Numbered from the stretch's first letter, positions 1 to 44,116 are shown. The stretch is DNA of 64,000 nucleotides from Alphaproteobacteria bacterium (GCA_964291395.2 OZ219856.1:768001-832000); one strand, 5' to 3'. The notes: generated by a model from the sequence alone, not told the origin. Translations and numbers: made by a program.

Positions 1-3000
1 CGGCCCCGGCCGCCCCCGCAGGGATGTCGATGCGGGCGCCGTCGGAGAAGACGACCCTGATCGCCCCGCCCGACAGGGTGGTGGTCGAGGAGATGTCGAT
101 GGATGTTCCGTCCGCGCCGTCCTGCACCGTGAAGCTGTCGCTTGACGCAGTTGTCGGTGTAGCGGATCGTCACCAGGCCTGTCGTCGAGCGGTCGATCGA
201 GCTGATGCCGACGCCGTCGGCGCCGTCCGCCAACGTGAAGGTCGCGGACGCCGAGCCGTCGTCGTAGGCCACCGTGACCACGCCGGTGGTGCTGTTGCGC
301 GTGATCGACCTGATGCCCCGCCCCGCCTGGCCGGCGCTGATGGTGAAGCTCGTCCCGTCCGAGAAGGTGACCGTCACGTTCCCTTCGGTGTCGGTCGCGA
401 AGCCGGCGGTGATGCTGGAGCCGTCCGCGCCGTCGACGACCGTGAAGGTATCCGTCGTGCCGTCGTCGAAGGTCAGCGTGACGACGCCGGTGTCCTCGTC
501 GCGCGAGACGCTGAGGATGCCCCTGCCTTCGAGCAGCGTGGGCGCCCCCCAGTTGAACTGCCGACCCGCCCCGGACGCGGACGCCGATGCTGACCCAGAT
601 GCGCCCCCGCCCGGCCGGCACGCTCGACACCCGGTCGTACCAGCCGGCCGGGACGCCGTTCGAGTTGGCCGGCTCCGCCGGCTTCGACGCCGCGCGCCTG
701 TAGATGATGTTGATGGCGCCCTCGTCGGACACCAGGACCGGCCCGACCCAGTCGTTCCCGTCCGCGTTCCAGGTGTCCCGGCGGGTGCCGTCGGCGGCCT
801 CGTCCGACGCGGTCGCCGTGATCGCCCAGACCGCCTCGCTCTGCGTGCGGCCGGGCCATGGGAACACCCATCCCGCAGGCGGCGTGAAGACCCCGGTGCG
901 GAAGTCGAAGGACCCTCTCGCTCCCGGGTTCGCCGGCGCCGCCGCGGTGACGCTCTGCTTGCGGTAGGCGGTGAGCTCCTTCCGGCTCACGGCGTCCTGG
1001 CCCTCGAGCTGGGTCGGCAGCCCCCACACGTAGTTCTCCGAGCCGCGCCGGCGGACGCCGATCGACACGTAGATGGGGTGGGCCCCCGCGGGCACGTCGC
1101 CGACGAGATCGTGCCAGCCGGCCGGTATCCCCTGGGAGGGAGCCGGGGCCTCCTCCGGCTGCGCCTCGAACCGCCTGTAGATGATGTTGAGGTCGTCGGC
1201 GTCCCCGACGACGACCGGTTCCGACCAGTCGTCCTCGTCAGGCGCTCCAGATGTCGCCCTCGCCCCGGTCGGCGGTGGCCGTGGAGGCATAGACGACCTG
1301 CGACCTGTCGTAGGCCGGGAACTTCGGCCCCACCCAGCCCGCCGGCGGGGTCAGGGCCCGCCCCGCGAAGTCGTAGCTGCCGCCGGTCGGGCGGTCGGGC
1401 GCCTCGGAGCCGGCCTCCTGCACCCTGTACACCTCGACTTCCTCGAAGTCCGTGCCCTTGCGCGGCAGCGGCCCCAGGGCGGCGGTCACGAACGTCGGAA
1501 GCGTCCGGCGGCCGTCGGCGAGGACGGCGGCGATGGCGAAGCGCCACGTCCCGGCGCCCGGGCGGTCCATGAACTCCGCCGGCGAGGACAGCAGCAGACC
1601 GTCGTGCAGGTCCGCCATGCTGTCCCATTCCGCTGCGGCGGCGGTCCCGTCCTCGGCGTAGCGGATGCGGTACCCGACCACGTCCGGCGACGGGTGCCGG
1701 CTCCAGGTCGCGATCCGCACGCCGAGCGCGTTGTCGGTGACGGAGAACCCGCCCACCGGCTCCAGGTGGGGATCGGCGGCGCCGGCGAGCGGGTTCCACG
1801 TCAGGTCGGCCGTCCGGTGCCCGTAGTAGGCGTCGACCTCGTCGCGGGCGATGAAGCGCAGCCGGTCCTCGCCGGCCGGCTCCTTGCCGGTGATCCGGAG
1901 CTTCACGAGGTCCGCCTCGGCCGTGAAGCACATGAAGCGGTAGGCGTGCGGGTCGTCGTCCACGCCCATGGGCGCGGCCGGCAGCGCCGCGTCCAGCACG
2001 ATCGCGCCGGCGCCGGCCCGCGTGTAGGCGCGCTTCAGGACCGCGTCGTCGAGGTCCCAGATCCAGGCGAACCCGTCGCCGGCGACGTCCCGCGAGAGCG
2101 TGCATGTGCGCCGGTCGGCCGAGATCGCCAGGAGGCGGCCGCCGGCGCCCGAGCCCACGAGGCCGTGGCTCATGCCGACGACGTCGCCGCGCGCGATGCC
2201 CATCCCCTCTCCGATGTGCATCTCCCAGCCGATCGTGCGGATGTGGTAGAACTGCGCCGCCACCGCCCGGTTGAGCTCCTTGGCCGCGTGGTCGCCGTCG
2301 GTGATGCCGTCGAGCTCGACCGTGACCGGCCGCTCCGGGGTCGCCGCGCCGGGCACCGAACGCCGGATCTGGTTGACCTGGTAATCGCTCGTCCGGTCGA
2401 TGAAGTTGCCGACCACCTCGTCGGCGAGTCCCTCGTTGTCGTAGGTGACCCCGAGGGTGCCTGCCACCACGTTGGCGGGCGTCACGAGCGACGTCATCGG
2501 CCGGCCGGCGTCCTCCCACAGCACTCCCCATTTGCCGGACTGCCTGTCTATCGCCCCCCAGCCGCACTGGCAGATGAGCTCGAGGGCGGCCGCGTGGTCG
2601 CGGCCGTCCTCGATGACGAGGTTGCACTCGAGGCCTTGCGCCCTGCAGTGCTCGGCGAAGCCCTGGATCGAGGGGAAGTCGATGCGGCTGTCGGGGAGGC
2701 CCATGCCGGCGACGAGCCGCCCGTCGATCCGCCAGCCCCGGAGGTAGCGGAGCAGCACGTCGCCGCAGTTCCCGGTGACCTGGCCGGGCACCCACCGCGT
2801 GCCGTCCCAATGGGCGGCCCGCTGCGAGGCGATGGCGTTGACCGCCTCCATCCGGCCGTAGAGCTGTCCCGTGGCCTTGGCCCGGACGGCGAGGGGATTG
2901 CGGCCGTCGAAGTCCGTCGCGTCGTCCTGGAACGCCCGGAAGGCGGCGACGCTGGCCCGGAAGATCAGGCGGTCGTCCTCCTCGTCGTGCTCGGTGAGCA

Positions 3001-4102
3001 GCGTGGCGCGCACGTCCCACGCCGCGGCGCGGCCGGTGGCGAACCTGAACGACCTGCGGACGGCGTTGCGCGCCTCGGCGCCGTCCGGTGTGACGAGGAC
3101 GAGGTCGCGCGACTGCCAGGGGCCCGCGGTGCCCGACTCCCGCCACTCGGCGCGGATCTCCGTATCGCGGCCGTCGAGGCTGCCGTTGCCCTGGGTGCGG
3201 AAGTGCTGCGCGGTGAGATCGAAGGCGACGGCCGTCGTGTCCGCGGCCGTCGTCCTCTGGAGCGGCGCGTCGTGCTCGAGGTCGCCGCCGGGGATGGTGT
3301 CGACGTTGCCGGCGACGAGCGTGACGCGGGAGACGTCCTGCTGGGTCCGGACGTCGTCGAAACTGCCGAAGGCGGTCTCGCCCATGTGCAGCGTGCCGAC
3401 GTCGAGGTCGCCGATCCCGAAATCGAAGATCTGATTCAGATACTGGTCGCCCTCCTCGTCGAACTCGGTGTATTCCCGCGCCGCGAGGTCCGGGAACACC
3501 CGGTGCGTGCCGAGCACGAGCTGGAGCGGCTCGTAGGGCCGCGCGCGGTTGGCGCCGCCGGAGATGCTGTACTGCGGCCTGGGCTGGCCGGTGTCCTGCG
3601 GTTTGGGCAGGCGGGGCGGGAACAGCGAGTTGACGATCAGCAGCCCGCCGAGGCCGATGGCCGCGGTGAGGAGCTGGCCGGCGATCGGTCTCCGCCGCCA
3701 CGATCGCCCGAACGAGCCGAAGCCGGCACCCAGAATGCCGCCCGCCAGGTACGGCGCCGCCACGAGCACCGCGATCGAGAGGATCACGGCGATGGGGTTG
3801 GAGCCCTCGCCGCCGGCGACGGCGGCGCGCACGTTGACGACGTCGCCCTCGCGCAAGGTGACGTCCCGCCACGCCGCGCGCGCGACGAGGGCGCCGTTGA
3901 CCGAGGCCACGGCCGGCTCCCACTCGGGCAGGCGGTCGCGGAACACCTCGTCGAGCGTCTGGCCCGCCACGGCGACGACCGCGCACCGGCCCTCGGTGGT
4001 GATCGGGTGCGGCCGGAAGTCGGCGAGGATCTCGGCGCCGGTCTTCGGACGGGACGCGTCATGCGTCCCGCGCATGTCGCGGGGCGGCATGGTCAGGTCC
4101 AT
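1..4102 (-). pseudogene. Phage tail tip / host-specificity protein (lambda J-like) with repeat-rich C-terminal extension; frameshifted, runs off window start
   Basis: ORF 1238..4102 has J-type N-terminus (QYSISGGANRARPYEPLQLVLGTHRVFPDLAA). Protein-like reading continues after apparent single-base insertions near 1240, 570 and 150 (WSA|DEDDWSEPVVVGDADDLNIIYRR; QFNWGAPTLLEGRGILSVSRD; SDSFTVQDGADG). Confidence 0.8.
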
Positions 4103-4482
4103 CTGTAGAATCCCACGAGCTCGAGGTTGACGGTCGCCAGCCGCCGCAGCGGCGTGAATATCGCCCCCGTCCCGGCGAGGTTGTGCAGGACCCACCCCTC
4201 GTTACCGGTCTCGGCATACACGCCGATGTGGCTCCCCAGCGACCGGCGGGAGCCGAGGACGCGCATCAGCACGGCGTCGTGCTCGCGCGGGCTCTCCGTG
4301 GGCACGGCCCATTCCGCGCCGAGCCCGGCCACCCGCTCGGGCGGCATCCGCCGCCACTCCCGCTCGGAGGGGAGCGCGATCTCGATGCCGAGCCGGTCGT
4401 GGACGACGTCGCGCACCAGGTCCGCGCAGTCGTACCTTCCCGCCTCCCACGGCCGCCCGAGATAGGCCTCCGTCCAGTGCAT
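4093..4482 (-). CDS. NlpC/P60-family tail tip protein (gpK-like)
   Basis: MHWTEAYLGRPW...YDCADLV...HIGVY...VLHN...GFYRW; catalytic Cys/His pattern; lies between DUF1833 gene and J. Confidence 0.85.
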   Translation of the reverse strand: MHWTEAYLGRPWEAGRYDCADLVRDVVHDRLGIEIALPSEREWRRMPPERVAGLGAEWAVPTESPREHDAVLMRVLGSRRSLGSHIGVYAETGNEGWVLHNLAGTGAIFTPLRRLATVNLELVGFYRWT

Positions 4483-6671
4483 CAGAACAGCCCCGGCGAG
4501 GTCGCGGGGTCGTGGCGCATGATCACGGCCGGCCGGCCGAAGATCGGCTCGTCGGTAAGCGAGACGGTGACGTACTCGTTCGTGACCTCCGCGACGCCGA
4601 CCGACATCTCGACCTCCCAGGCGACCACGCTTTCGTCGCCGTCCGCGACCGGCGGGATCAGCCGCAGCACCCGCATCGAGGCGCCGCGGCCGCCGTCCGA
4701 GGCATCGACCCATTCCATCAGCTCCTCGCCGACGTTGTCGATCCGCAGCACGGCGTTCCGGACCTCGCCCTCCCTGGATTGGGGCACCCGGGCGTGAAAG
4801 GCCAGCGGGATGTAGCGGTTGCCCTCGACGGTGTGCTCCGCGGTGTCCGCCACGATGCGGGCGGGCTCGGTGATGTCGGGATGCTCGATCTCCAGCGCGA
4901 ACACCTGGTCGCGCCCGGCGAGCGACCGGGCAGTCTCCCGCGCGGTGCCGGCGGCAGCCGGGTCGAGACCTGCGACCCGCCCGGCCGGCCGGCCGAGGCG
5001 GGCGCGGGCGGCCAGCGCCTCCCTCGGAACCGGGTCGACGAGCGCGATCGGACGACCGAGACGGGCGCGTGCGGCCAGCGCCGCCGGGTCCGCCTCGACG
5101 AGAACGACCGGGGGATCGAGGCGCGCGCGGGCGGCGATCGGCGCGGGGACCGCCTCGACCGCGGCAACCGGACGGTCGAGGGTTGCGCGCGCGGTCAGCT
5201 CCCCCGGAACCGCCTCGACTTCGGCGATCGGCCGGGCGGTGCGGGCGCGCACGACGATCGGCGCGGGGATGGCCTCGACCTCGGCGACCGGCCGGCCCAG
5301 GCGCGCACGCGCGGTCAGCGTCTCCGGGAGCGGCTCGACCAGTGCGACCGGGCGGCCGAGGCGGGCGCGGGCGGTGAGCGCCTCCGGCTCGGGATCGACG
5401 ACCCCGATCGGGCGGCCCAGGGCCGCGCGCGCGGTGAGGGGGTGCGGCAGGGCGCCTTCTGAGATGCGCAGGCGGGCGATGCCGGGCCGGGCGGTCAGGG
5501 GCCGGGGAACGGCCTCCACCTCGGCCGCCGGCCGCCCCAGGCGCGCCCGCGCCGTGAGGTCCCCGGCGGGCACCGGCATCAGCATGACCTCGCCGGAGAG
5601 CGTGCCGTCCAGGCCTCCCGCGACCGGCCCCTCGATGTCGAGAGGCGGATGGGGCCGCCAGAAGGCGACGATGAAGCGGATGCCCTCGACGATCGCGTGG
5701 AGGTCGGCCACGTGGCCGCTCTCGTCGAAGTTGGCGAAGTTCGGCCCGCCGCCCTGGTAGGGCAGCGTGAACTCGCCGGCGTCCCGGGTCTGGATCGTCA
5801 GGTTGAGGTCGGCGCCGGCGCCGCCCTCGTGGAGGAAGCCTCCCGCGCCTCCGAGGGCGTCGCCGCTCGGGTTGTCCCACAGGCGAAATTCCCGGCCGCC
5901 GCGCCGGATTCTGATCCGCGTGATCGACTGGCCGGGCCGGAGCTCGAGGTCGGAGCCCGCGTGGACCGTGCCTGCGGGGTCGCCGTTGTCGGCGTCGCGG
6001 TAGACGTCGTCCCGTTCGCCCGCCGTGATGAGCGCGAGCACGACCGTCCGGCGCCCGACGGTGTTGAATTCCCCGAGGGTCAGCTCGGCGGTGACGGTGC
6101 CGGAGAGCGCCCCCGAGAGCCCGCCGGCGATGGTGCCCGTGATCCGCAGCGGGACGTGGCCGAGGGTGACCGGGCCGGCGAGCGTTCCCGAGAGGCCGCC
6201 CGCGATCGTGCCGGTGATCTCGAGAGCCTGGTCGTCGTCCAGGACGGCGGTGAAGTCCGGGGTCCCGGTGAGGGCTGCGACGTTCGTCAGGAACGTTCGA
6301 AGCTCGGCCACCCTGCTGCCGACCAGCGTCCACGCATACGCCTCCGTCGGGTCTCGCAAATCCGCCCGCACGAGAGGGCTGTTGGGGCCGGGAATGACCA
6401 GTTCATGGCCTCCGACACTGACGATGAGCGCCTTGGCCGACTGTTCCCACTCTGCGGTAAGCTCGTCGCCTGACCAGTAGGGGTTTTCGGTCCGGCTCGA
6501 CCCGACGGCGACGTAGATGTCGCCATACGACTGGATATAGATCTCGCGCAGGCGGTAGCCGGACGCCCCGCCGGAGACGAGACCCGGGTCGATCGCGAGA
6601 TTGAATTGGAAACGCAGATCGGACGCCGTGCGCGTGATCGGCGCCGGAAGATCGAAGACCTGTCGTGCCAT
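4482..6671 (-). CDS. DUF1833-like tail tip protein with long N-terminal extension and 20-aa repeats
   Basis: C-terminal ~150 aa (FALEIEHPDITEPARIVAD...LRIDNVGEEL...DPATSPGLF) is typical of DUF1833; preceded by about 10 LTARARLGRPxAxVE repeats. Confidence 0.75.
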   Translation of the reverse strand: MARQVFDLPAPITRTASDLRFQFNLAIDPGLVSGGASGYRLREIYIQSYGDIYVAVGSSRTENPYWSGDELTAEWEQSAKALIVSVGGHELVIPGPNSPLVRADLRDPTEAYAWTLVGSRVAELRTFLTNVAALTGTPDFTAVLDDDQALEITGTIAGGLSGTLAGPVTLGHVPLRITGTIAGGLSGALSGTVTAELTLGEFNTVGRRTVVLALITAGERDDVYRDADNGDPAGTVHAGSDLELRPGQSITRIRIRRGGREFRLWDNPSGDALGGAGGFLHEGGAGADLNLTIQTRDAGEFTLPYQGGGPNFANFDESGHVADLHAIVEGIRFIVAFWRPHPPLDIEGPVAGGLDGTLSGEVMLMPVPAGDLTARARLGRPAAEVEAVPRPLTARPGIARLRISEGALPHPLTARAALGRPIGVVDPEPEALTARARLGRPVALVEPLPETLTARARLGRPVAEVEAIPAPIVVRARTARPIAEVEAVPGELTARATLDRPVAAVEAVPAPIAARARLDPPVVLVEADPAALAARARLGRPIALVDPVPREALAARARLGRPAGRVAGLDPAAAGTARETARSLAGRDQVFALEIEHPDITEPARIVADTAEHTVEGNRYIPLAFHARVPQSREGEVRNAVLRIDNVGEELMEWVDASDGGRGASMRVLRLIPPVADGDESVVAWEVEMSVGVAEVTNEYVTVSLTDEPIFGRPAVIMRHDPATSPGLF
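4975..5562 (-). repeat. Degenerate ~60-bp in-frame tandem repeat, about 10 units
   Basis: LTARAALGRPIGVVDPEPEA / LTARARLGRPVALVEPLPET / LTARARLGRPVAEVEAIPAP etc. Confidence 0.9.
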
Positions 6672-6704
6672 CGGGGACGGACCTCAGACCGGGAGCGGGC
6701 CGGG

Positions 6705-7097
6705 CTAGACCGTGATCCGGAACCCGTTGGCGATCTGCACCGGCTGGCCCTGCCGGGGCGCCGCGATGTCGGGGTACTGGAACCAGCCCGTGAGCTGGTT
6801 GCCGGCAACGGCCGCGTCGAAGAACGCGATGTGGGTGGCGTCCACGGCGTTCCCGGTGTTGGGCGTGTAGATCGTCACCGCCTTGTTGAAGGCGATCGAG
6901 GAGCCGTCCGCCGCCACCGTCAGGTCGGCCACCGGGATCTGCTTCCGCGCGTAGCCGTTGGCGGCCGCGATCTCGGCGACGGCCGTCCCCCCGGAGGGGA
7001 CCGCGCCGAGGGCCGCGTGGACGCCGGCGATCCGCTGGTTGGCGCCGGTCGCGAACAGGTCGCCGACCTTCTTCTTGAAATGGTTGGTCCAGGCCAT
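6705..7097 (-). CDS. Small virion/tail-associated protein
   Basis: 130 aa, E...GYARKQI...THIAFFDAAVAGN motif common in phage minor tail proteins; RBS GGAGG. Confidence 0.65.
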   Translation of the reverse strand: MAWTNHFKKKVGDLFATGANQRIAGVHAALGAVPSGGTAVAEIAAANGYARKQIPVADLTVAADGSSIAFNKAVTIYTPNTGNAVDATHIAFFDAAVAGNQLTGWFQYPDIAAPRQGQPVQIANGFRITV

Positions 7098-7114
7098 GGG
7101 GCTGCCTCCTTTGC

Positions 7115-7498
7115 CTAGCGGGCGAGCACGAGGTCGAGGGTGCCGGCGGCGATGCGGAACGGCCGGCCCGTCACCAGGGTCACCGGCGCCACCAGCTCCA
7201 TCCGCCCGTACCAGGTGTTGCCGAAGCGGATGCCGAGGTGGTTCACCACGGTGCCCGCCTCGGCGGCCGCCGGCGTGAAGACGTCGATGGCGTTGTCATT
7301 GTCGGACGTCGCCGCGTTCGCCGACCAGCCGGCCGCCGCCTCGGTGTGGCGGGCGTAGTTCCGGCCGGCGCCGGTCGCGAGCTCGTTGTCCGCGCCGGCC
7401 GCGCCGGGGTCGTCGGTGTGGACGCTGATGGTCACCGACCGGGTCGCGAGGTAGGCCGCCAGGAAGGCGAGCCCGCTGTCGTCTACTTGGGTGGTCAT
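7115..7498 (-). CDS. Small virion/tail-associated protein, paralog of neighbour
   Basis: SVHTDDPGAAGADNEL...NYAR...FRIAAGTL; RBS GGAGGAG. Confidence 0.65.
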   Translation of the reverse strand: MTTQVDDSGLAFLAAYLATRSVTISVHTDDPGAAGADNELATGAGRNYARHTEAAAGWSANAATSDNDNAIDVFTPAAAEAGTVVNHLGIRFGNTWYGRMELVAPVTLVTGRPFRIAAGTLDLVLAR

Positions 7499-7510
7499 AG
7501 TCTCCTCCGT

Positions 7511-7866
7511 CTAGTGAAACCCCTCGAGCTCCAGCTCGAAGTCCCATGTGCGCTTCGCCCGCCGCGCACCCGCGCGGTGTAGCGGATCGCCCCGGCGCCG
7601 CCCCGGACGCGCACGCGGCGCGTCACGGCGTCCTCGGTGTCGCGCCAGTCGAACCAGGCGTGCGCGCTCTCCCGCGCCCAGGCCCGGAAGCGCACCAGGT
7701 CCGCGTCCGAGGCGAGCCAGCCCCGCACGCGCCTGAGGTCGAGCGCGCGGGTGTGCCGCTTGCCCTGGCGGACCGCGCCGTCGTCGAACCTGGTGCGCGC
7801 GACGTCCGCATCCTGGCCGAGTCCGTAGCCGTCAGCCGCGACGTTCGCGTAGGCCGGCCAGGTCAC
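7511..7866 (-). pseudogene. Distal tail (gpM/Dit-like) protein with frameshift near its C-terminus
   Basis: MTWP...RTRFDDGAVRQ...WFDWRD directly after tape measure; natural-looking end KRTWDFELELEGFH* lies in another frame (stop 7511-7513). Confidence 0.65.
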
Positions 7867-34933: not shown

Positions 34934-35354
34934 CGGATTGTCGGGGATCTCCGGTAGAGCCGGTGGCCGGATCCTGATGCTGTCGTCTCGGAAGTTGGCG
35001 CAGTGGCACGAGGAGGTGGGGTGCGTGGCCGAAGACGCCGCTGAAACGCTGGCCTTGGGATCCGGCACGGAGTTCACGGACCTCGTGCGGCGGGAGACCA
35101 CGGAGATCCATGCGCTGCCGTGAGGTCCGTTACCGCGCCGCGTTCAGCAGAGACATTGGAAAGACAGCGCTACGGGGCCAAAATTCCCGAAGACTCTCGT
35201 CTTTTGGTAGTGACCTTTTCGGCGTCACGGCGGCGTCCGGAGTCGTCAGGACCGAACTGCCCCCGAGTGGCTGAATTGAGGGTGTCAGGCCGGTTCGCCC
35301 GATCCGGACTCCACGTTCATGTGAGTCGGGCCGATGCCTGTATGACCCGCGGTT

Positions 35355-36590
35355 TTAAGCATCCTCCGGGTCGATCGAAATTTGAGTCTGGCTTCGTGGC
35401 ACCAGAATGTGCAATCCCATGCCCCGCATGGTGTGATCGTCACTGGCCAGGCAGATAGGTTGAAGGGCGAGAAAAACATCGGCAAGAACGGTTGAATTCC
35501 AGAACCAGGCCTCTAAATCAGCCCGGCTGGGCGTACCCGGTTGAGCCGTGACTGCCTCGAAATAAAAGGTTTTGAGGTCGTCACAGGCTAGCTTCAGGAC
35601 ATCACCGGAAGTCAGCCCATCTCGAGGGCTTTCGTCCGGTGGGTTTTCCAGGAAGGACAGTATGTACTTGCCGGCCTCCTCCATGCCAAAACCGCTGATC
35701 CCTACCGTCGTCCGTCCTCGGCGTTCGACAGCCAGGTCGTACCACGGCGTCATCTGCCCGATCTCGCGCCTCAACGCAGCCTTGAGACTTCCCTCGTCTT
35801 CATCTTCCGGCGCCCCGAAATTGACTGGGCAGGCCCACCCCTCCATCTCTTCTTCCGTTGGTGCAGGCGCGTCTTCACGGTAGTCGACGATAAGGGGACC
35901 CGAGTCCGCTTCGAATAGATCGAGCGCCGCTTTCAGGACCCGGGTCTGGAAGGCGGCGTCGCCCGGAGCTCCGAAGGGACGGCCAAGTTCAAACGGCACC
36001 CATAGCGCTCGTGGCGGGCGAGAGATTTCTGTGTGCGGACGGATAAGGCTGATCTGCGACGTCGCCACGCCTTCGTCTTCAATATATAGTCCCAGCCCGC
36101 CTACGGCGCGCGTGCAGGCCGGTCATATGGGCACAAGAAGAACGGCGTCGACATTATCGTCCTTGAGAACGCCGGCCAATTGGCGGGCCGTGGTCTCCAT
36201 CTTGGCCGGTGGGGTCGCTCCCAGGAACGAGTAATGATAGTCAGCGACGGACCCGATGATACCTTCCGCAGCCATTTCGTGGAGACGGTCGATCGGGAAG
36301 ACAACGTTTAGGTCCTCCTGGAAGCCGGTACGATCGAAATTGATCGAGATGTGGCTCATCACCAAATCGGCGGCGTCGTAATCGCCCGGGATGATACGGA
36401 AATCACCCGCTCCCTTGGTAAACGGTCGGTCGCCGCGGCGCTGCAATCCGGCCGTCGTGACAATTGCGACCCGGCGCTCGGCCAATGGCACTCCCGTGAC
36501 CCAAGGTGCCGGTTCAAGGGTAATGCAGTTCTCGGCGATAAGGGCCATTGCGTCCTGCTCATAGTCAGGAAGATCTGTCCAGCGGACCAT
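35355..36590 (-). CDS. PrdB/GrdB-like selenoprotein B with in-frame UGA (Sec)
   Basis: ORFs 36123..36599 and 35355..36068 share one frame, joined by TGA at 36125-36123 in VPI-U-PAC (UxxC); a hairpin follows. Confidence 0.85.
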
Positions 36591-37046
36591 GTGACTCACC
36601 CGGCCAGTTTGATGACACCGATACGGTATCCTTCTCGAGAACGATCCACAAGGAATGGATCTGAGCCTGCCACTGACTAGCCCGCATCCCTGGACAGGAC
36701 GGGGCGCCGGTCTTCAAGAAGCGACTTGCAGTTGGCGGGCGAGGTGCCCGCGCTGGCGTTCGGCTCATCTACTGCCTTGACGAGCACTGCGTGGTGGCGT
36801 TGTTCGTTTACGCCGAGAACGGGAAGGCTGACGTTCCTGTTCCGGAGATCGGGGCCGCTTGAGCCGTGGCCGACCTGCTCGCATCGGTTCGAGAGTTGAG
36901 ATCTCCCGTTTCATTGAAGCAGAACCGCAAATTCCGTAGAATTCGCACGATTCGCAAATCCGGAGGAATTTCGGGACGCAACCCGGTCCCGGATGGCCGC
37001 GGCGTGGGGAGCGGACCTCTTCCGGTGTCGGGAAACGAGGATCTTC

Positions 37047-37988
37047 ATGACCATTACCGAAGGCGTTGAAAAGTCACGCAAGACATCGCGGGGCACATCC
37101 TCTCGGAAGCGCAACGAGAGGGCTGCGAAATCGGCAAAGCCCGAGATCAGGCGCGTATCGCCCGCCCTCGGCGCGGAGGTCCTCGACGTGGACCTCAGGG
37201 AGGACTTGCCGGACGAGACCATCGCCGAGATGAGAAAGGCCCTGAGCGAGAACTGCCTCCTCCTGATCCGGGATCAGGACATTACGCCGGAACAGCATGT
37301 GGCGTTCAGTCGCCGGTTCGGCGAGCTCGAGATTCACGTGTTGACCGAATACCTCCTGCCGGATCAGCCGGAAGTCCTGGTGCTGTCCAACGTCAAGAAG
37401 AACGGCAAGATCGTGGGCCGGGCCGGGGTCGGCGAATATTGGCATTCCGATCTGCAGTACCTCGCCAGGCCCTCGCTGGGATCGATCATGCATGCCATCG
37501 AGGTGCCCGAGATCGGTGGCGACACCATGTTCGCCAACCAGTTCGCGGCCTACGACGCGTTGTCGGACGGCATGAAGGATCTGCTCGGCGGCCTGGAGGT
37601 CGTGCACCACTTTGCCAAGGCGCGGTACAATTCCGTCCAGGTGGGCTATGCCCGGCCGTACAGCGACGAGGAGCTGAAGAAGACTCCGCCCGTCACGCAT
37701 CCCGCCGTGCGCACCCATCCCGAGACGGGCAGGAAGGCGCTCTATGCCAGTCCCGGTTTTGCGCTCAATTTCGTCGGCATGACGGAGGAGGAGAGCCGGC
37801 CGCTCCTCGAATTCCTGTACCGGCACGCGGTCAATCCGCGCTTCCTCTACCGTCACAAATGGCGGGCCAACGATATCGTGTTCTGGGACAACCGCAGCCT
37901 CATGCACTACGCCGTGCAGGATTACGATCACGCCAACGACCGCCGCCACATGCACCGCACGACGATCTCGGGCGACGAGCCGTATTGA
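37047..37988 (+). CDS. TauD/TfdA alpha-ketoglutarate dioxygenase
   Basis: WHSD, GGDTMFA, HPAVRTHPETGRKALY, WDNR..H, MHRTT. Confidence 0.93.
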   Translation: MTITEGVEKSRKTSRGTSSRKRNERAAKSAKPEIRRVSPALGAEVLDVDLREDLPDETIAEMRKALSENCLLLIRDQDITPEQHVAFSRRFGELEIHVLTEYLLPDQPEVLVLSNVKKNGKIVGRAGVGEYWHSDLQYLARPSLGSIMHAIEVPEIGGDTMFANQFAAYDALSDGMKDLLGGLEVVHHFAKARYNSVQVGYARPYSDEELKKTPPVTHPAVRTHPETGRKALYASPGFALNFVGMTEEESRPLLEFLYRHAVNPRFLYRHKWRANDIVFWDNRSLMHYAVQDYDHANDRRHMHRTTISGDEPY

Positions 37989-38018
37989 GGTCTCCGCTGC
38001 CCCCGTCCTCCGGTCGGC

Positions 38019-38918
38019 TCACCCTTTCCGGTTCTCCTGCCAGATGTCGTTGACCACGTTGTAGAGGTCGCTCCAGTCGTTGTCGCCGTGGCCCCGCTCC
38101 AGGGCGGCGTCGTAGGCCGCCAGCGCGGCGGGCGCGGTGTAGCAGGGCAGGCCCTCGCGCTCCATCATCGTGCGCGCGATGTTGACGTCCTTGCGGGCAT
38201 GCTTGATGGCGAAGCCGGGGTCGAGGTCGCCGGCCAGCGCCTTGTTCGGGAAATGCTGCCTCGAGTGCCCGTTGCCGGCCAGGGTGTCGTTGACGATCTC
38301 GAGCGTCTTGTCCGGGCCGACTCCGCCCGCTTCGGCGAGGCGCAGCGCCTCCGCGACCATCACGGCGCCGGCCGTGGCCATGAAGTTGTTGACGATCTTG
38401 CAGGTCATGCCGTGACCCACGTCGCCGCAGTCGATGATCGTCGTGCCCATCGCCTCGAGCGCCGGCATGGCGGCGGCCTTGTCCTCCGTCGAACCCGCGA
38501 CCATGAGCATGGAGTTGCCTTGGCGGGCGTCGTCGGCGGTCCGGCCCACCGGCGAGTCGACATAGCCCCAGCCCGCCGCCTTGGCCTGCGCCGCGAACTT
38601 CGGCACGGCGCCCGGGTCGATGGTGCACATCACCATGACGACGCGCCCCTCGCCGGGGCTCTTCAGCAGCCCGTCGTCGCCGTTCAGCACGGCGTCGACC
38701 TCGGGCACGTCGGGCACCATGACGATGACGAGCTGCGAACCCTCGCCGGTGGCGCCGGGCGTGTCGACCATCTCGCCGCCGTTCGCCTTCACTTCATCGC
38801 CGGCGCCGGGAAGGGGGTCGTACCCTTTCACCTTGAAGCCCGCCCCGAGCAGGGCGCTCGACATCGCCGTGCCCATCAGGCCGAGGCCGATGAAGCCCAC
38901 TTGTTCGATCTCACCCAT
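38019..38918 (-). CDS. Beta-hydroxyacid dehydrogenase (3-HIBADH family)
   Basis: GFIGLGLMG, DSPVG, KIVNN, KD motif. Confidence 0.9.
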   Translation of the reverse strand: MGEIEQVGFIGLGLMGTAMSSALLGAGFKVKGYDPLPGAGDEVKANGGEMVDTPGATGEGSQLVIVMVPDVPEVDAVLNGDDGLLKSPGEGRVVMVMCTIDPGAVPKFAAQAKAAGWGYVDSPVGRTADDARQGNSMLMVAGSTEDKAAAMPALEAMGTTIIDCGDVGHGMTCKIVNNFMATAGAVMVAEALRLAEAGGVGPDKTLEIVNDTLAGNGHSRQHFPNKALAGDLDPGFAIKHARKDVNIARTMMEREGLPCYTAPAALAAYDAALERGHGDNDWSDLYNVVNDIWQENRKG

Positions 38919-39182
38919 CTGTCCTTCCCCCCTGGAACCGTTGCTTTCCGCGCCGGCCGGCGTGCCGGGGCGCGTGAACCTACACGGCGCGGGTTGCCGC
39001 TTCAACGCGCGGCGCTTGGCCTTGGCGATGGCCGTCCCGCGCTGAAACGAGACGATCGGCTCGCGGGCGACAGAGGGTTGCCCTCGACCGCCTGTAGACG
39101 CGCGGCCTCGGCCTGCCGCTCGTTCATGACCGCGCCCCGACGGCCGACTTCATGCATCGCCCTGTTCATGCGGTGAGACGTT

Positions 39183-39228
39183 GGGGGAACATGTTCCCCT
39201 GACGCCCGGCCGCGGGTCTTCCGATACT
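39183..39228 (+). promoter_or_regulatory. Late promoter 2: palindrome + TGACGC-N17-GATACT
   Basis: Same 23-bp motif and spacing as 15775-15820. Confidence 0.8.
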
Positions 39229-39330
39229 CCTCGCCGGCGCCGCGGCGATGCGGGACGGGACACGTCCTCCATGCCCGGCATCGCGGTCTCGTCCGCGGCG
39301 CCCCGTCGACGCCGATCGGGAACGCACGCC

Positions 39331-39771
39331 ATGATCATGAAGAGGGCCCTGCTCCGCCGCGACACGGAGGGCGACCACGGCACCCTCGGGGTGCTCGCCG
39401 CTCCCGGCCTGCCGGACCCGCTCCAGGTCATGGAGCCGCCGTGGCGCGACAACCGCCGCAACCGCTCCCGCATCCCGCCCGGCATCTACGAGGTGCTGCC
39501 CCATCTGTCGCCGCGTTTCCGTTCCTGCCTGCTGGTCTCGGGCGTGCCGGAGCGCAGCCATATCCTGTTCCACGCGGGCAACGTCGGAGGGGACGTCGAG
39601 CAGGGCTGGCACACCCACACCCACGGCTGCCTGCTGCCGGGTATGCGCCGCGGCCGGATCGAGGTGCGCGGCCGCGTCCAGGCGGCGGTGCTCTCGTCCC
39701 GGACCGCGTTCCGGCACCTCATGACCTGGTGCGCCGGCGCGCCCTTCACCCTGGAGATCGTCGATGCTTGA
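39331..39771 (+). CDS. DUF5675-like putative endolysin
   Basis: GTLG...EPPWRDN...SRIPPGIY...VPERSHILFHAGN...GCLLPG, in the lysin position. Confidence 0.75.
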   Translation: MIMKRALLRRDTEGDHGTLGVLAAPGLPDPLQVMEPPWRDNRRNRSRIPPGIYEVLPHLSPRFRSCLLVSGVPERSHILFHAGNVGGDVEQGWHTHTHGCLLPGMRRGRIEVRGRVQAAVLSSRTAFRHLMTWCAGAPFTLEIVDA

Positions 39772-40279
39772 CCTGCTGACCTCGATCCTGACCGGCGGCG
39801 CGACCGGCCTGCTCGGCACCGCCCTTTCCTTTGCCACCAGCCATTTCCAGGCCCGGCAGCGCCACGCCCAGGAGCTCGAATTGCGCCGGCTCGACATGGA
39901 GCTCGCCGAGGTCGAAGCGGCCGGCGCCGAGCGGGTCGCCGCGCTCGAGCTGGAGGGCGGGACGGCCCGGGCCGAGCTCGCGGCCTTCCGCGAGTCCTAC
40001 CGCGAGGCGGCGCGGCGCTGGAGCCGCCCCGGCGACGGCTGGCTCATGCGGTTCGTCGATTTCGTGCGGGGCATGACGCGGCCGGCCCTCACCTGGGGGT
40101 TCGTCGCGCTCACCGGCGCCATCTACTTCACGATGGGCGACGCGGACGCCGTCGTCGACGGCACCGCCGTCAAGGCGCGGATCGTCGACACCGTGCTCTA
40201 TCTCACCACCACCTGCGTGCTGTGGTGGTTCGGCGCTCGCCAGATCGCCAAGGGCGCGCGTCCGGCGGGGACGGGCTGA
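39764..40279 (+). CDS. Holin-like membrane protein
   Basis: RGMTRPALT, two TM segments, WWFGAR. Confidence 0.7.
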   Translation: MLDLLTSILTGGATGLLGTALSFATSHFQARQRHAQELELRRLDMELAEVEAAGAERVAALELEGGTARAELAAFRESYREAARRWSRPGDGWLMRFVDFVRGMTRPALTWGFVALTGAIYFTMGDADAVVDGTAVKARIVDTVLYLTTTCVLWWFGARQIAKGARPAGTG

Positions 40280-40605
40280 TGCCGGGGGCGGAAGCCTGGC
40301 AGGCGTTCGGCGGCGTCGTCACGGTCCTGATCTTCCTCGGCGGCGGCGCCTTCGCGCTGAAGCGCCTCGGCATCGTCGGCGCCCGCGCCGCGGCGGCGCC
40401 GGCCCGCGGCGGACCCGCCGAGGGCGACCTCGCGGACCGCGTCGTCGGGCTCGAGCGCGGGCTCGGCGACCTGCGCCTGCACGTCGCCGAGAATTACGTG
40501 CGCCGCGACGACTACATCCCCAACGAAAGCCGGGTCATCGGCCTGTTGGAGACCCACGGCGTGATGCTGGCGCGGCTCGAGGAGAGGATCGGAGGGGGAC
40601 CATGA
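40279..40605 (+). CDS. Mu gp25-like membrane-anchored protein
   Basis: N-terminal TM, VAENYVRRDD, coiled coil. Confidence 0.6.
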   Translation: MPGAEAWQAFGGVVTVLIFLGGGAFALKRLGIVGARAAAAPARGGPAEGDLADRVVGLERGLGDLRLHVAENYVRRDDYIPNESRVIGLLETHGVMLARLEERIGGGP

Positions 40606-40922
40606 GGGACAACCTGAGCCAGGACCACATCGCCGCCCTGCGCTGGACGATCCTGCGCACGTTGATGGTGGGCGGCCACCTCGGGGCGACCGACAAGATG
40701 TGCCTCGACGTCGCCCGCGCCGAATACATCGGCGTCACGATGCAGCGCATCCATACCGAGTTCGACTATCTGGAGTCGCGCAAGCTGATCGAGACGGAGC
40801 GCTCCGAGCTCCGCGCCTGGCGGGCCAAGCTCACGCGCCACGGCCGGGACGTCGTGGACTACGAGGTCGGCGTCGAGCCCGGCATCACCCGGCCGCCCTT
40901 TCTCGATCCGCGCGCGGGCTGA
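40602..40922 (+). CDS. Mu gp26-like protein
   Basis: LRWTIL...DYLE...LTRHGRDVV...PGITRP. Confidence 0.75.
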   Translation: MRDNLSQDHIAALRWTILRTLMVGGHLGATDKMCLDVARAEYIGVTMQRIHTEFDYLESRKLIETERSELRAWRAKLTRHGRDVVDYEVGVEPGITRPPFLDPRAG

Positions 40923-40926
40923 CGCC

Positions 40927-41442
40927 GTGCCGCCGCGCTCCAAGGTGGCGGGCCTGCCCTCCGAGGTCCGGGACGAGCTCGACCGCCGGCTCTCCGAGGG
41001 CGGGTTCCGCGACTACAGGAGCCACGCCGAATGGCTGACCGAGCTCGGTCATCCGGTGTCGCACACCTCCGTGCACCGCTACGGGTCCAGGCTCGAGCGG
41101 CGCATCGAGTCGCTCCGCGTGTCGAGCGAGATGGCGGCCGCCCTCGTCGCCGCCTCGCCCGACGACGCCGTTGCCATGGCCGACGCGTCGATCCAACTGG
41201 TCCAGGAGCGCATGTTCCAGCTCCTGCTGGCCTCCGAGGAGGGGGATTTGGAGGAGATGACGATAGCCGCCCGGGCGCTCGCCGAGGCGGCGCGGGCCAG
41301 CATCGCCATCCGCGCCGACCGGCGCAAGGCGCTGGCCGAGGCCGCCGAGCGTGCGGGCAAAGCCTCCAAGAAGGCCGGGCTGTCGAAGAACACCGCGGCC
41401 GCGATCCGGGCCGCGATCCAGGGCGGCGAGGAGGCCGCATGA
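40927..41442 (+). CDS. Mu gp27-like small terminase (DUF3486)
   Basis: MPPRSKV..LP...GHPVSHTSVHRYG...KAGLS. Confidence 0.85.
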   Translation: MPPRSKVAGLPSEVRDELDRRLSEGGFRDYRSHAEWLTELGHPVSHTSVHRYGSRLERRIESLRVSSEMAAALVAASPDDAVAMADASIQLVQERMFQLLLASEEGDLEEMTIAARALAEAARASIAIRADRRKALAEAAERAGKASKKAGLSKNTAAAIRAAIQGGEEAA

Positions 41443-42857
41443 AGCGTTCGCTCCTGCCTTACCAGAAGCGCTGGGTGGACGACCGGGCGCAGCTCAAGGT
41501 GATCGAGAAGAGCCGGCGCATCGGCCTCTCCTGGTGCGAAGCCTTCGATGCCGTCATGCACGCGGCGGAGGACGCCGGCGACGTCTACTACCAGTCGTTC
41601 GACCAGGAGATGACGCGCGGCTTCATCGACGACTGCGCCGACTGGGCGGAGGACCTCAACGTCGTCGCCTCGGCGGTGGGCGAGACCCTGATCGCCGACG
41701 GCGACAGGCAGGTCCGGGCGTTCCGCATCGTCTTCGACAACGGCCGCGAGATCGTCGCGATGACCTCGGCGCCGCGCGCCTTCCGCTCCAAGGGCCGCCC
41801 GGGCGATCTCGGCATCGTCGACGAGGCGGCCTTCGTCGACGACCTCGAGGAGGTGCTGAAGGCGGCGCTGGCGTTCCTGGTCTGGGGCGGGCGCATCCAT
41901 GTCCTGTCCACGCACAACGGCGAGGGCAACCCCTTCAACGGGCTGTGCGGGGACATCCGCTCGGGCAGGCAGCCGGGCTCGCTGCACACGGTCACCTTCG
42001 ACGGCGCCTTGGCCGACGGCCTCGCGGCCCGGGTTCTCGAGGTGCGGGGCCGCCCTCCCTCCCGCGAGGCGATGGAGGAATGGGCGCGCGGCATCCGGCG
42101 CGTCTACCGCCGCAACGCGGCCGAGGAGCTCGACTGCGTCCCCGCCGCCGGCTCGGGAACCTTCCTCACCTGGGACATGATCCGGCAGTGCCGGCACGCC
42201 GACGCCGGGAAGCCGGAGCTCTATGAGGGCGGGTTTTCCTATCTCGGGATCGACGTCGCGCGCCGCAGGCACCTCTGGGTGGCGACCGCCTTCGAGATGG
42301 TCGGGGACGTGCTTTGGGCGCGGGAAATGGAGATCCTGCGGGACAGGCGGTTTTCGGAGCAGCGGGCGGTGGTCCGCCGGATGGTGCGCCGGTTCAGGTG
42401 CATCCGTATCGGCATCGACCAGACCGGCATGGGCGAGGGTCTGTTCGAGCAGCTCCAGGACGATCACGGAACGCAACGGGTCGAAGGGTTCCTGCTGACC
42501 GGCCCGACCAGGCTGGCGCTCGCGACCTCGCTGCTCACCCGTTTCGAGGACGGCCGCATCCGCATTCCCGACGACGAGGACACCGAGGCGGACCTGCGGT
42601 CGGTCAGGCGCGAGGGCGCCGCCGCCGGCCCGCCGCGCCTGGTCTCCGACGAGAGCGGGACGGACGGCCACGCCGACCGCTTCTGGTCGTTCGCGATCGC
42701 CTGCCACGTTTCCGAGGCGGGCCCGGCCGAATTCGACTATGTAGCGGCGCCTCCGCGCCGCGGCGCCCGCGTCGACGACGGCCCGGCGCCGGGCCGGGGC
42801 TGGCTCCGCCCCGACCACGGCGGCGACTTCCGGCGCCCGGCGAGGGGAGGCTGGTGA
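41439..42857 (+). CDS. Mu gp28-like large terminase
   Basis: LLPYQ, KSRRIGLS, VDEAAF, STHNG, GIDVAR, DQTGMG, GHAD. Confidence 0.94.
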   Translation: MKRSLLPYQKRWVDDRAQLKVIEKSRRIGLSWCEAFDAVMHAAEDAGDVYYQSFDQEMTRGFIDDCADWAEDLNVVASAVGETLIADGDRQVRAFRIVFDNGREIVAMTSAPRAFRSKGRPGDLGIVDEAAFVDDLEEVLKAALAFLVWGGRIHVLSTHNGEGNPFNGLCGDIRSGRQPGSLHTVTFDGALADGLAARVLEVRGRPPSREAMEEWARGIRRVYRRNAAEELDCVPAAGSGTFLTWDMIRQCRHADAGKPELYEGGFSYLGIDVARRRHLWVATAFEMVGDVLWAREMEILRDRRFSEQRAVVRRMVRRFRCIRIGIDQTGMGEGLFEQLQDDHGTQRVEGFLLTGPTRLALATSLLTRFEDGRIRIPDDEDTEADLRSVRREGAAAGPPRLVSDESGTDGHADRFWSFAIACHVSEAGPAEFDYVAAPPRRGARVDDGPAPGRGWLRPDHGGDFRRPARGGW

Positions 42858-44116
42858 TGGCGATCCTCGACCGGTACGGGAATCCGGTCCGCGCGTCCGA
42901 TCTCGGGCGCGAGCTCGCCGGGCCGACCGTCTCGGGCGTGCGCTCGATCCTCTCGGAGCATCCGGCCCAGGGCCTCACGCCCGGGCGCCTCGGGGCGCTG
43001 CTGCGCGAGGCCGAGCAGGGCGATTCGCGAAGCTATCTCGAGCTCGCCGAGGAGATGGAGGAGAAGAACCTCCACTATCTCGCCGTGCTCGGCACCCGCA
43101 AGCGCCAGGTCGCGCAGCTCGACGTGCGCGTGGTGCCGGCGGACGACGGCGCCGAGGCCGCGCGCGACGCCGATCTCGTGCGCGACTGGCTCGCCTCCGA
43201 GCCCCTCGAGGACGAGCTGATCGACGTCCTCGACGCGCTGGGCAAGGGCTATTCGGTGACCGAGATCATGTGGGAGTTCTCCGAGCGCCGGTGGTGGCCC
43301 GTGCGCCTCGAGCACCGCGACCCGCGCTGGTTCGCGTTCGATCGCGCGGACGGGCGCACCCTGCGCCTGCGCGGCCTCGACGGCCGGGAGCGGCCGCTCG
43401 CCCCGTTCAAGTTCGTGGTGCACCGCTTCCAGGCCAAGTCCGGCCTGCCCATCCGCGCCGGATTCGCCCGCATGGTCGCCTGGTGGTACCTGTTCGCCAA
43501 CTACGCGGTGAAGGACTGGGTCCAGTTCATCGAGACCTACGGCCAGCCGACGCGGATCGGCAAGTACCCGCCCAACGCCAGCCCCGAGGACCGGGACGTC
43601 CTGCTGCGGGCGCTCACCAATCTCGGGGCCGACGCCGCGGCGATGATCCCCGAGTCCATGATGATCGAGCTCGTCGAGACCAGGCAGAGCGGCGGCGGCC
43701 GGTCGTCGGCCCACGGCGCGCTGCTCGCCTACGTCGACGCCCTGATCTCCAAGGCGGTGCTCGGCCAGACGCTCACGACGGAGGCCGGCGAGCGCGGCGC
43801 CCGGTCGCTGGGCGAGGTGCACGACGAGGTGCGGCGCGACATCGAGCGCTCCGACGCCCTCGCCCTCGGCCAGACGCTGACCCGCGACGTCGCGCGCCCC
43901 CTCGTGGCGCTCAACCACGGCGAGCGCAGACGCTATCCGCGGATCGCGGTCGGCCGCGAGGAGACCCTCGACGTCGCCCGGGTCTCCGAGGCGCTGGCGA
44001 AGCTGGTGCCGCTGGGCCTGCGCGTGGCCGAGGCGGACGTGCGCGACATGCTCGGTTTCGCGGCGCCGGAGGACGGCGACGAGCTCCTCGGCACGAGCCC
44101 GCCGCCGGGCGGTTGA
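42857..44116 (+). CDS. Mu gp29-like portal (DUF935), 419 aa, possibly C-terminally shortened
   Basis: HPAQGLTP, EEMEEK, YGQPTRIGKY, SKAVLGQTLT; ends abruptly before AT-rich hipBA promoter; no gpF/gpG follow. Confidence 0.9.
   Translation: MAILDRYGNPVRASDLGRELAGPTVSGVRSILSEHPAQGLTPGRLGALLREAEQGDSRSYLELAEEMEEKNLHYLAVLGTRKRQVAQLDVRVVPADDGAEAARDADLVRDWLASEPLEDELIDVLDALGKGYSVTEIMWEFSERRWWPVRLEHRDPRWFAFDRADGRTLRLRGLDGRERPLAPFKFVVHRFQAKSGLPIRAGFARMVAWWYLFANYAVKDWVQFIETYGQPTRIGKYPPNASPEDRDVLLRALTNLGADAAAMIPESMMIELVETRQSGGGRSSAHGALLAYVDALISKAVLGQTLTTEAGERGARSLGEVHDEVRRDIERSDALALGQTLTRDVARPLVALNHGERRRYPRIAVGREETLDVARVSEALAKLVPLGLRVAEADVRDMLGFAAPEDGDELLGTSPPPGG

Follow-up and report, generated by a model that had tools for sequence, protein, structure and literature searches.

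In phage Mu, activators of the Mor/C family act on dyad sites at about -43.5 of the promoters Pm, Plys, PI, PP and Pmom. Gene transfer agents (GTAs) such as RcGTA, BaGTA and VSH-1 show vertical inheritance over genera or orders and stand under the control of host regulators, while R- and F-type pyocins are controlled by PrtR and PrtN. We analysed 64 kb of DNA (G000:C1:768001-832000, hereafter called the window) from an uncultured, sponge-associated alphaproteobacterium, in which Mu-type head-tail genes, a repressor-activator pair and lysis-packaging genes form a rearranged element. The probable ancestor of this element is a Mu-like siphovirus of the marine alphaproteobacterial RC1/RS1/vB_ThpS-P1 type. 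We think it probable that the element is now an immobilised, rearranged prophage remnant that decays slowly; for a GTA-like role, which seems quite improbable, we find no support.

The marine Mu-like siphoviruses comprise Rhodobacter RC1, Rhodovulum RS1, vB_RhkS_P1, vB_ThpS-P1 and vB_PeaS-P1, and the window keeps their late gene families in the same internal order, with lysis genes, Gp27, TerL and Mu portal in one series and gpI, cement, gpT, Gp36 and a lambda-like tail in the other. The portal protein of the window is 45-46% identical to those of the isolated phages and 73-78% identical to those of uncultured relatives. Five of these relatives (loci L192, L014, L015, L017 and L110) share with the window an activator of the same type, which in the relatives is encoded just before the lysis genes. 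Compared with the siphoviruses, the window is without MuA, MuB, Gam, MT-A70, GemA, a MuF protein fused to an ADP-ribosyltransferase (MuF::ART), gpG and Dam; its head-tail block is inverted and the tail of its portal protein is cut. Compared with phage Mu, the window has one activator rather than a cascade from Mor to C, and its genome contains two copies only of the promoter box described below.

The repressor-activator pair and the shared late promoter

The source genome (4.16 Mb, three contigs, 64% G+C) resembles a metagenome-assembled genome (MAG), with a marker-gene contamination of 9%. Gene families in the window were placed by Pfam and PHROGs scans. These scans bore out the layout given in a preliminary description of the window, namely a minus-strand Mu-type head-tail block that extends to 15766 and a plus-strand lysis-terminase-portal block at 39331-44116, about 22 kb away; the host-like DNA between them measures about 21.7 kb. 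The same description placed an S24 repressor about 220 bp from a divergent Mor-like gene without early genes between them, and indeed the gap is 219 bp long and contains no early Mu gene. Since the early region is deleted, the activator would now stand directly under the divergent promoter that the repressor controls. The AT-rich region between the two genes is a candidate operator.

The Mor-like protein matched phrog_836, annotated as 'late transcriptional activator', over its full length (E 6.5e-15), and scored 19 bits against the Pfam family Mor, under the cut-off of 24.9. It is 47-56% identical to the activators that precede the lysis genes in the five relatives with canonical gene order, and it has all 29 invariant columns of the alignment of these five proteins. 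Judged by these matches, it is predicted to be an activator of the Mor/C family.

The longest inverted repeat within positions 1-46000 of the window pairs 15768-15820 with 39183-39235, and 23 nt within it are identical. It includes a 16-nt dyad, GGGGAACATGTTCCCC, which is the same before both late blocks and is followed by a spacer and a -10-like hexamer, with no -35 element. The 14-nt core of this box occurs twice in the window, against 0.17 copies expected, and only twice genome-wide. The geometry of dyad, spacer and hexamer puts the dyad centre near -43.5, the position known for Mor/C-type activators, and binding of such an activator to the dyads, at a fixed distance from the -10 of both late operons, is predicted. 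The 3' end of Mor (~17264-17279) contains a degenerate version of the dyad. The ATG of gpI is 8 nt past the hexamer (15764-15780), and this distance is 7-8 nt in four relatives, which would imply a leaderless or near-leaderless mRNA of the head operon.

The canonical relatives L014, L015, L017 and L110 each have one pair of boxes, at the end of Mor and before gpI; in L192 the site at the Mor end is seen and the contig stops before gpI. The dyad sequence co-varies from phage to phage. The spacing is 23 nt in eight of the ten promoters compared, with 22 nt in two promoters of L110, and the lysis promoter of L017 has no clear hexamer. Homology between the window and the relatives begins at the box in both blocks. 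Because the canonical relatives carry the same box pair, the shared-box regulon represents the Plys/PI design of the parent phage and not a new circuit, PrtN-like or otherwise; the preliminary description had called the PrtR/PrtN circuit of pyocins analogous. Contigs of the X16 metatranscriptome cover gpI, the control region, Mor and the GFA gene next to it; contigs from an RNA library do not show transcription.

Missing genes and rearrangement

We searched the whole 4.16-Mb genome by local tblastn with 14 early and morphogenesis open reading frames (ORFs) from the loci of the closest relatives, including the MuA C-terminus, MuB, Gam, MT-A70, GemA, MuF, gpG and Dam, and obtained only one match, of 45 aa. 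A full MuA (731 aa, from G014) gave no more than 25% identity over 100 aa in this genome, while the control, MuA of G015, was found at 62%. MuB queries from L014 and L017 had no homologue in the whole genome, and the Pfam family Phage_Mu_F had no match in it. The Pfam profile DDE_2 matched its control in no genome and hence says nothing on the transposase. The lack of MuA, MuB, gam and gemA, from which the preliminary description had deduced a non-replicating derivative, therefore holds genome-wide by tblastn, and the absence of gpF and gpG noted there holds likewise (MuF was found neither by tblastn nor by Pfam, and gpG not by tblastn). A prophage without MuA and MuB would not be expected to be functional. 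From the Mu-type head module, portal, gpI and gpT are present, and MuF and gpG are absent.

All retained phage genes are single copy in the genome, except for one lone Gp27-like gene elsewhere. This gene (34% identical; G000:C1:1869023-1869679, equal to L191:6023-6676) adjoins a DUF4143 ATPase, a split IS256-family transposase and defence genes of GmrSD and AAA type, in DNA with a G+C content of 0.49-0.70.

With the portal as query, 79, 80 and 80 loci were retrieved from genomes, metagenomes and IMG/VR, respectively. The closest portals were those of L192 (78% identical) and of L014, L017, L110, L015 and L071 (71-75%). The best identity was 74% in JGI metagenome contigs and 78% in IMG/VR, with no near-identical copy among the matches, in collections that may exclude records of the source genome itself. 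L014, L015, L017, L110 and L192 show a canonical order, MuA-MuB-Gam-MT-A70-GemA-Mor-lysis-Gp27-TerL-portal-MuF::ART-gpG-(Dam)-gpI-cement-gpT-tail, and in G014 and G015 the repressor is outermost at the left end, divergent from MuA. Among the 127 loci (of 239) with at least 6 kb on each side of the portal, 100 carry gpI or gpT downstream of the portal in the same orientation; the remaining 27 are mostly distant loci of Binatia type, in which head genes may escape the queries used. MuF is fused to an NAD:arginine ADP-ribosyltransferase in L014:11302-13746, L015:11624-13708, L017:11320-13779 and L273:6016-8421. This ADP-ribosyltransferase is presumably an ejected effector, and its gene is among those lost from the window.

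Relative to the canonical plan, the window has lost the early region between repressor and Mor, the MuF-gpG-Dam genes and the 3' end of the portal gene. Moreover, the head-tail block is inverted behind the repressor, and Mor is separated from the lysis promoter by about 21.7 kb of host-like DNA. Restoration of the canonical order by a single inversion was rejected, as a search over signed gene orders requires at least three if the 21.7 kb are counted as outside host DNA; otherwise, the minimum path consists of one inversion, one insertion and two deletions.

The 147-bp flank downstream of the repressor is the place of the phage left end in the canonical relatives. One idea is that the junction between this flank and the gpI box arose by self-integration through the transposase. 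No Mu-end motif was recognised in the flank (15820-15966). Short-word BLAST of the flank against the left-end regions of the relatives and the tail-side boundary gave chance words only and no common motif. Tblastx of the junction stretches against all relatives returned only GC-rich noise and the box, and alignment of the flank with that of G016 was confined to the coding part and the box. A third dyad, located at the left end of the phage, was rejected as an explanation of the junction, because no third box was found: with up to one mismatch allowed, the whole genomes of G013 and G016 contain no more than two boxes, and the same holds for the G014 and G015 constructs with up to three mismatches allowed.

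A gene-complete Mu-like prophage of unconventional order was found in G016 (G016:C7:187001-227000; L272/L273), with MuA, MuB, Gam, MT-A70, GemA, Mor, portal, MuF::ART and gpG. One strand of this prophage carries the repressor, the GGGGAACATGTTCCCC box and lysis-TerL-portal-MuF-gpG; the other carries MuA-MuB and onwards to Mor, the box and the head-tail genes. It also has a gene for an Acb2/Tad1-like hairpin domain, possibly an anti-CBASS or anti-Thoeris sponge. Two further loci of 21 kb, L016 and L071, have the repressor-box-lysis arm as in G016; beyond this arm MuA and MuB are seen in L016, and L071 shows the repressor arm only. One inversion from box to box is all that distinguishes the window order from the G016 type. 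In a side reading of low probability, the palindromic late-promoter dyads would also serve as breakpoints at which late modules flip around a repressor-early core.

Gene lesions, population variation and genomic setting

The features of the element are listed in Table 1. The frameshifts that the preliminary description reported in several genes are present in the C-terminal third of gpJ and in the repressor, where 8 additional nucleotides near 16159-16166 break the frame in the window assembly; those suspected in TerL and portal are not. The latter two frames are unbroken, with each start overlapping the preceding stop codon, and their apparent frameshifts were rejected as high-GC artefacts in the form of long overlapping ORFs.

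Table 1. Features of the element and its junctions, with positions counted from the first nucleotide of the window.
Feature	Position	Strand	Basis or remark
gpJ-like tail tip protein	4090 leftwards, to ~290 bp past the left edge of the window	-	Pfam FNIII-A_GpJ, phrog_31
729-aa tail ORF with C-terminal DUF1833 domain	4482-6671	-	Pfam/PHROGs
Gp80-like tail/virion genes (two)	6705-7097, 7115-7498	-	Pfam/PHROGs
Small tail/virion gene, phrog_384	7495-7866	-	PHROGs
Tape measure, 854 aa	7863-10427	-	TMP_3, Tape_meas_lam_C; unbroken in the window
Tail assembly chaperone	10653-11123	-	Pfam/PHROGs
Major tail protein	11176-12141	-	Pfam/PHROGs
Tail terminator	12152-12607	-	Pfam/PHROGs
Gp36 head-tail adaptor	12621-13028	-	Pfam/PHROGs
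FluMu_N protein	13095-13448	-	Pfam/PHROGs
gpT major head protein	13459-14361	-	Mu-like_gpT, E 2.5e-125
Cement/decoration protein	14380-14811	-	Pfam/PHROGs
gpI protease/scaffold	14813-15766	-	Mu-like_Pro, E 5e-67
PI-type late promoter (predicted)	15775-15819	-	dyad GGGGAACATGTTCCCC 15804-15819, 23-nt spacer, GATAAT 15775-15780
Repressor downstream flank, 147 bp	15820-15966		place of phage left end in canonical relatives
LexA-like S24 repressor	16715 to 15967	-	Pfam/PHROGs
Divergent control region	16716-16934		AT-rich; short palindromes, e.g. GGCATATATGCC at 16720-16731
Mor/C-family late activator (predicted), 122 aa	16935-17303	+	phrog_836
Host-like gene mosaic, ~21.7 kb	17343-39015		62-68% G+C
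Plys-type late promoter (predicted)	39184-39228	+	dyad GGGGAACATGTTCCCC 39184-39199, 23-nt spacer, GATACT 39223-39228
DUF5675	39331-39771	+	Pfam/PHROGs
171-aa protein with hydrophobic stretches	39764-40279	+	putative lysis cassette
Single-transmembrane protein	40222-40605	+	putative lysis cassette
phrog_436 protein (p40602)	40602-40922	+	PHROGs; putative lysis cassette
Gp27 small-terminase-like protein	40927-41442	+	Pfam/PHROGs
TerL	41439-42857	+	Pfam/PHROGs
Mu-type portal, 419 aa	42857-44116	+	Pfam/PHROGs
AT-rich 125-bp promoter region and hipBA toxin-antitoxin pair	44117-45754	+	right-hand junction of the phage DNA

Codons 1-950 of gpJ (1241-4090) are intact, and the remainder (1-1239) is split into four further frame pieces. 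A contiguous homologue on another contig, P0290 (1457 aa, 93% identical), aligned with the window by tblastn in five pieces, in frames -3, -1, -2, -3 and -1; a C6 run is found at only one of the gpJ frame breaks. No other protein shares the 90% cluster of the tape measure. In one other assembly it is represented by a 379-aa C-terminal piece (95% identical) and in another by a 676-aa form (45% identical). With gpJ disrupted in the window and the tape measure shortened or substituted in other strains, preservation of the tail is not uniform. Comparison of the 729-aa DUF1833 ORF with the G014 relative, which has just the DUF1833 part, gave a match over the last 140 aa only; about ten tandem repeats of 60 nt (20 aa) lie inside this ORF at 4973-5558.

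The portal C-terminus is 50-120 aa shorter than in nine relatives, and the AT-rich promoter region of hipBA abuts its stop codon. In all 15 listed portal alleles the protein breaks off at one homologous position, where two kinds of short ending occur. The genes at 39331-40922 have a putative role in lysis, judged by their position and hydrophobicity, and a sequence search of the PDB with DUF5675 gave no meaningful match.

The preliminary description left room for a layout unique to this assembly, yet it recurs in contigs of the sequencing runs X1-X3 and in an independent NCBI MAG. Contigs from X1 bridge both the gpI-repressor and the Mor-GFA junctions, one X2 contig of 5748 nt spans gpT to PhoX, and an X3 contig bridges the gpI-repressor junction. 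In the NCBI MAG, consecutive accessions put Mor beside GFA, and one 22-kb contig carries TauD, DUF5675, p40602 and portal in this order. Both ends of the host-like DNA are thus backed by the accession order of this MAG, on which the joins at 39.0-39.2 kb and 44.1 kb rest; contigs were matched from cluster to cluster by their lengths. Furthermore, a 3-kb junction stretch was sought in sequencing runs. It was found in 22 runs, mostly sponge metagenomes from 17 studies, with 0.91 of the sampled words in one run and 0.32-0.46 in another 21, although, for the 18 runs examined by word share only, shares of 0.32-0.46 do not prove the layout.

The X2 contig differs from the window at 25 positions in 2.3 kb and then at 106 in 2.6 kb. 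Over 13634-18549, its divergence is 1.1% in gpT-gpI and 4.1% in repressor-Mor-GFA-PhoX, with nine differences in 25 nt at the repressor 3' end. This uneven divergence implies that the head genes share more recent ancestry across strains than their neighbours. Fifteen of the 25 differences, a small and selected subset, were listed for gpT, cement and gpI; seven are synonymous and eight non-synonymous, a ratio that indicates only weak constraint.

Allele lengths were taken from clusters at 90% identity, in which the other contigs measure up to 5.28 Mb. Fifteen members were listed from each of six clusters: portal (21 members; 419 aa once, 420 aa seven times, 431 aa six times and 365 aa once), gpT (17 members; 300 aa 13 times, 492 aa once and 188 aa once), Mor (16 members; all 122 aa), DUF5675 (24 members; all 146 aa), cement (19 members; all 143 aa) and p40602 (16 members; all 106 aa). 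Gp27 had six members, five of 171 aa and one of 103 aa. Identities to the window alleles in the same assemblies were 97.1-98.6% for portal, 98.3-99.3% for gpT and 97.7-98.2% for Gp27, compared with 94.3-95.3% for PhoX, 93.6-94.5% for GFA and 94.6-97.1% for TauD; Mor (92-98%) and DUF5675 (92-95%) were also compared.

The G+C content of the phage parts, 72-75%, is foreign to the host genome and exceeds the 62-68% of the host-like stretch. From 17343 to ~39015, this stretch carries GFA, PhoX, ParDE (20177-20848), a STAS-domain gene, OtsA, GH15, an EthD-to-FMO cluster, a Rieske dioxygenase, AtuA, a 2-kb insert, TauD and HIBADH. The STAS-domain gene (20914-21249) has DNA matches of 75-77% at five other places in the genome, and copies of it also adjoin the conserved island flanks in G003-G005. 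The low-GC 2-kb insert (34940-36973), with genes of no known kind, lies inside the AtuA-TauD-HIBADH block (33278-38940). This block is 88-92% identical to one in G003, whose site there is precisely empty in G000 at C1:1731806-1731814, with the genes that border it in G003 as immediate neighbours; from these alignments, the block appears to have moved, or to have been lost and regained. In relatives, the host-like blocks are located elsewhere.

The locus is a plastic, hypervariable island rich in toxin-antitoxin genes. Its flanks, malate synthase on the left and 62.4-64 kb of the window on the right, are 65 kb apart here and 7.3-12 kb apart in G003, G004 and G005. Beyond the portal, 44117-53500 holds a dense run of toxin-antitoxin and stress genes, with hipBA, a full SRAP gene and a fragment of one, an HTH-M78 (IrrE-like) regulator, and PIN, MazE/MazF and HicB-type genes.

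Genus and family were represented by one genome per species. gpT was absent from all five other species of the genus and gave only a 37% partial match in one of 12 family genomes; from the junction DNA, only the GFA gene had matches elsewhere in the genus. The absence of the element from these relatives argues against vertical inheritance across the clade. A layout shared by relatives along a vertical phylogeny, as envisaged in the preliminary description, thus did not appear (none of five genus species, and one distant partial match in 12 family genomes).

Origin, rival readings and known systems

We propose that a Mu-like prophage entered one species-level lineage of this sponge-associated alphaproteobacterium and was disarmed through loss of its early region and an internal inversion. 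Host-like blocks would have been picked up in the plastic island, and slow decay would have left different lesions in different strains. The wiring of the late switch would have been retained, such that the LexA-like repressor controls the divergent promoter, and with it the activator directly, and the dyad for the activator lies at about -43.5 before both the lysis-packaging and the head-tail blocks. This circuit, from repressor through divergent promoter and Mor/C activator to the two dyad promoters, probably still fires. Induction would still express the lysis and structural genes, while the element could neither move nor replicate and would decay rather than serve its host.

Several observations weigh against a remnant in decay, and they favour instead a late-gene regulon maintained by domestication, in which repressor cleavage would free the Mor/C activator to switch on both late operons, and lysis with release of tailed particles or capsids would serve the host. 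Independent data sets show the layout and its junctions again. For seven genes, almost every listed allele has full length, namely 15 of 15 each for Mor, DUF5675, cement and p40602, 14 of 15 for portal, 13 of 15 for gpT and five of six for Gp27. Structural proteins (portal, gpT and Gp27) are more conserved than the neighbouring host-like enzymes PhoX, GFA and TauD. Both late promoters are intact, perfect and identical over 23 nt, with a fixed spacing from dyad to hexamer, and the two indels seen in tail terminator and gpI are both in frame. Contigs of X1 and X2 lack the additional 8 nt and have a continuous repressor frame, and four of the five frame breaks fall within 1.5 kb of repetitive gpJ sequence, where they could reflect a strain mixture or assembly errors. 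The full-length alleles, conserved structural proteins and intact promoters agree with purifying selection acting on a large part of the element and are not expected from simple neutral decay. Finally, an element that cannot transfer all of its own genes agrees with the definition of a GTA, and the particle genes here appear unable to transfer or replicate themselves. Nevertheless, we consider such a regulon unlikely. Its conservation is limited to one species-level group, its G+C content has not shifted towards the host value, the genome is devoid of MuF and gpG, and the portal protein has lost its tail. Furthermore, gpJ is disrupted in the window, other strains have a shortened or substituted tape measure, the seven synonymous to eight non-synonymous differences of X2 indicate weak constraint, and control is exerted by a phage repressor, not by a host regulator. 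Neither vertical inheritance across the clade nor a complete, intact set of head and tail genes was observed. In its strongest form, the regulon would be a GTA-like agent that takes up chromosomal DNA by Mu-type headful packaging; we regard GTA-like transfer proper as quite improbable. The same degree of doubt attaches to a cargo-biased, GTA-like transducer, i.e. an SOS-switched Mu-derived regulon under selection that would package headfuls rightwards from a left-end remnant beside the repressor. It seems similarly improbable that a headful of about 39 kb would there include Mor, the metabolic cargo of 21.7 kb, the genes for lysis and packaging and the island of toxin-antitoxin genes, and leave out the element's own head-tail genes.

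Could the element instead be a still-viable transposable phage with an unconventional order of divergent arms, as in G016? The G016 prophage (G016:C7:187-227 kb) and L016 combine a lysis-portal-MuF-gpG arm behind the repressor with MuA and MuB, L071 shows this repressor arm, and the window order differs from the G016 type only by the box-to-box inversion. The genome, however, yielded no MuA, MuB, Gam, GemA, MuF or gpG, and the element includes about 21.7 kb of host-like DNA. In addition, it extends over about 46 kb, more than the 38.8-40.2 kb genomes of the five isolated marine phages most closely related to it. A viable phage is therefore very improbable. An assembly that mis-joined two unrelated prophage fragments or strains is scarcely credible. 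The assembly is MAG-like, with 9% marker contamination, and the junctions of the lysis-portal block rest on accession order rather than reads. Yet contigs of X1, X2 and X3 bridge gpI and repressor, those of X1 and X2 also bridge Mor and GFA, and a contig of the NCBI MAG joins TauD to the lysis genes and portal; moreover, the phage genes are single copy, and both fragments share their G+C content and the 23-nt box.

We therefore favour the prophage remnant in slow decay, which the preliminary description mentioned as a caveat in the form of an ordinary decaying prophage. What remains of the overall proposal made there is the lack of transposition genes, the adjacent repressor-activator pair, the two late blocks with an identical promoter box and the recurrent layout. 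Domestication is unlikely, in view of the narrow distribution, the foreign G+C content, the setting in a hypervariable island, the missing MuF and gpG, the cut portal tail, the lesions in gpJ and tape measure and the existence of L074, a remnant of this type that is further decayed (see below). Even as a mere remnant, the locus provides a documented snapshot of how a transposable phage is disarmed, with its early region lost and its termini disrupted by an internal inversion, while in a natural population of sponge symbionts it retains an intact repressor-activator-promoter circuit and the majority of its structural genes. A shared-box regulon found in such a remnant stems from the phage and is no evidence of domestication. 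If the GTA-like reading were right after all, the element would be the first Mu-derived GTA-like element and a route of gene exchange among uncultured sponge symbionts. A limited literature search found no Mu-derived GTA by title, which does not show its absence from print.

A decayed Mu-like remnant of similar layout, L074 (equal to L162, 99.98% identical), comes from a Rhodospirillaceae MAG; its positions 1-14407 carry gpI on the minus strand, Dam on the plus strand, the repressor on the minus strand and TerL-portal-MuF on the plus strand, without early genes. Like the window, it thus combines gpI and repressor on one strand with TerL-portal-MuF on the other, and its left part is likewise inverted with respect to the head-tail genes. 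Unlike the window, it has other breakpoints, Dam beside gpI, and no gpT, Mor or lysis genes, and its major tail protein, tail assembly chaperone, Gp80 and gpJ are present as fragments only, which corresponds to a later stage of decay. Since its proteins are only 50-65% identical to those of the window, it represents an independent event.

Like the GTAs, the element of the window consists of phage-derived particle genes in more than one operon and is not self-mobilising. It differs from them in its restriction to one species-level group, its foreign G+C content, its phage repressor, the absence of head-completion genes and the lesions in its tail genes. The presence of gpT, gpI, portal and TerL shows that it is not a tailocin either. 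It resembles the pyocins in its S24 repressor of the autocleavable type, its activator and the promoter box shared by its operons; unlike theirs, however, its activator belongs by prediction to the Mor/C family, in which we found no relationship to PrtN, and its box was inherited from the parent phage.

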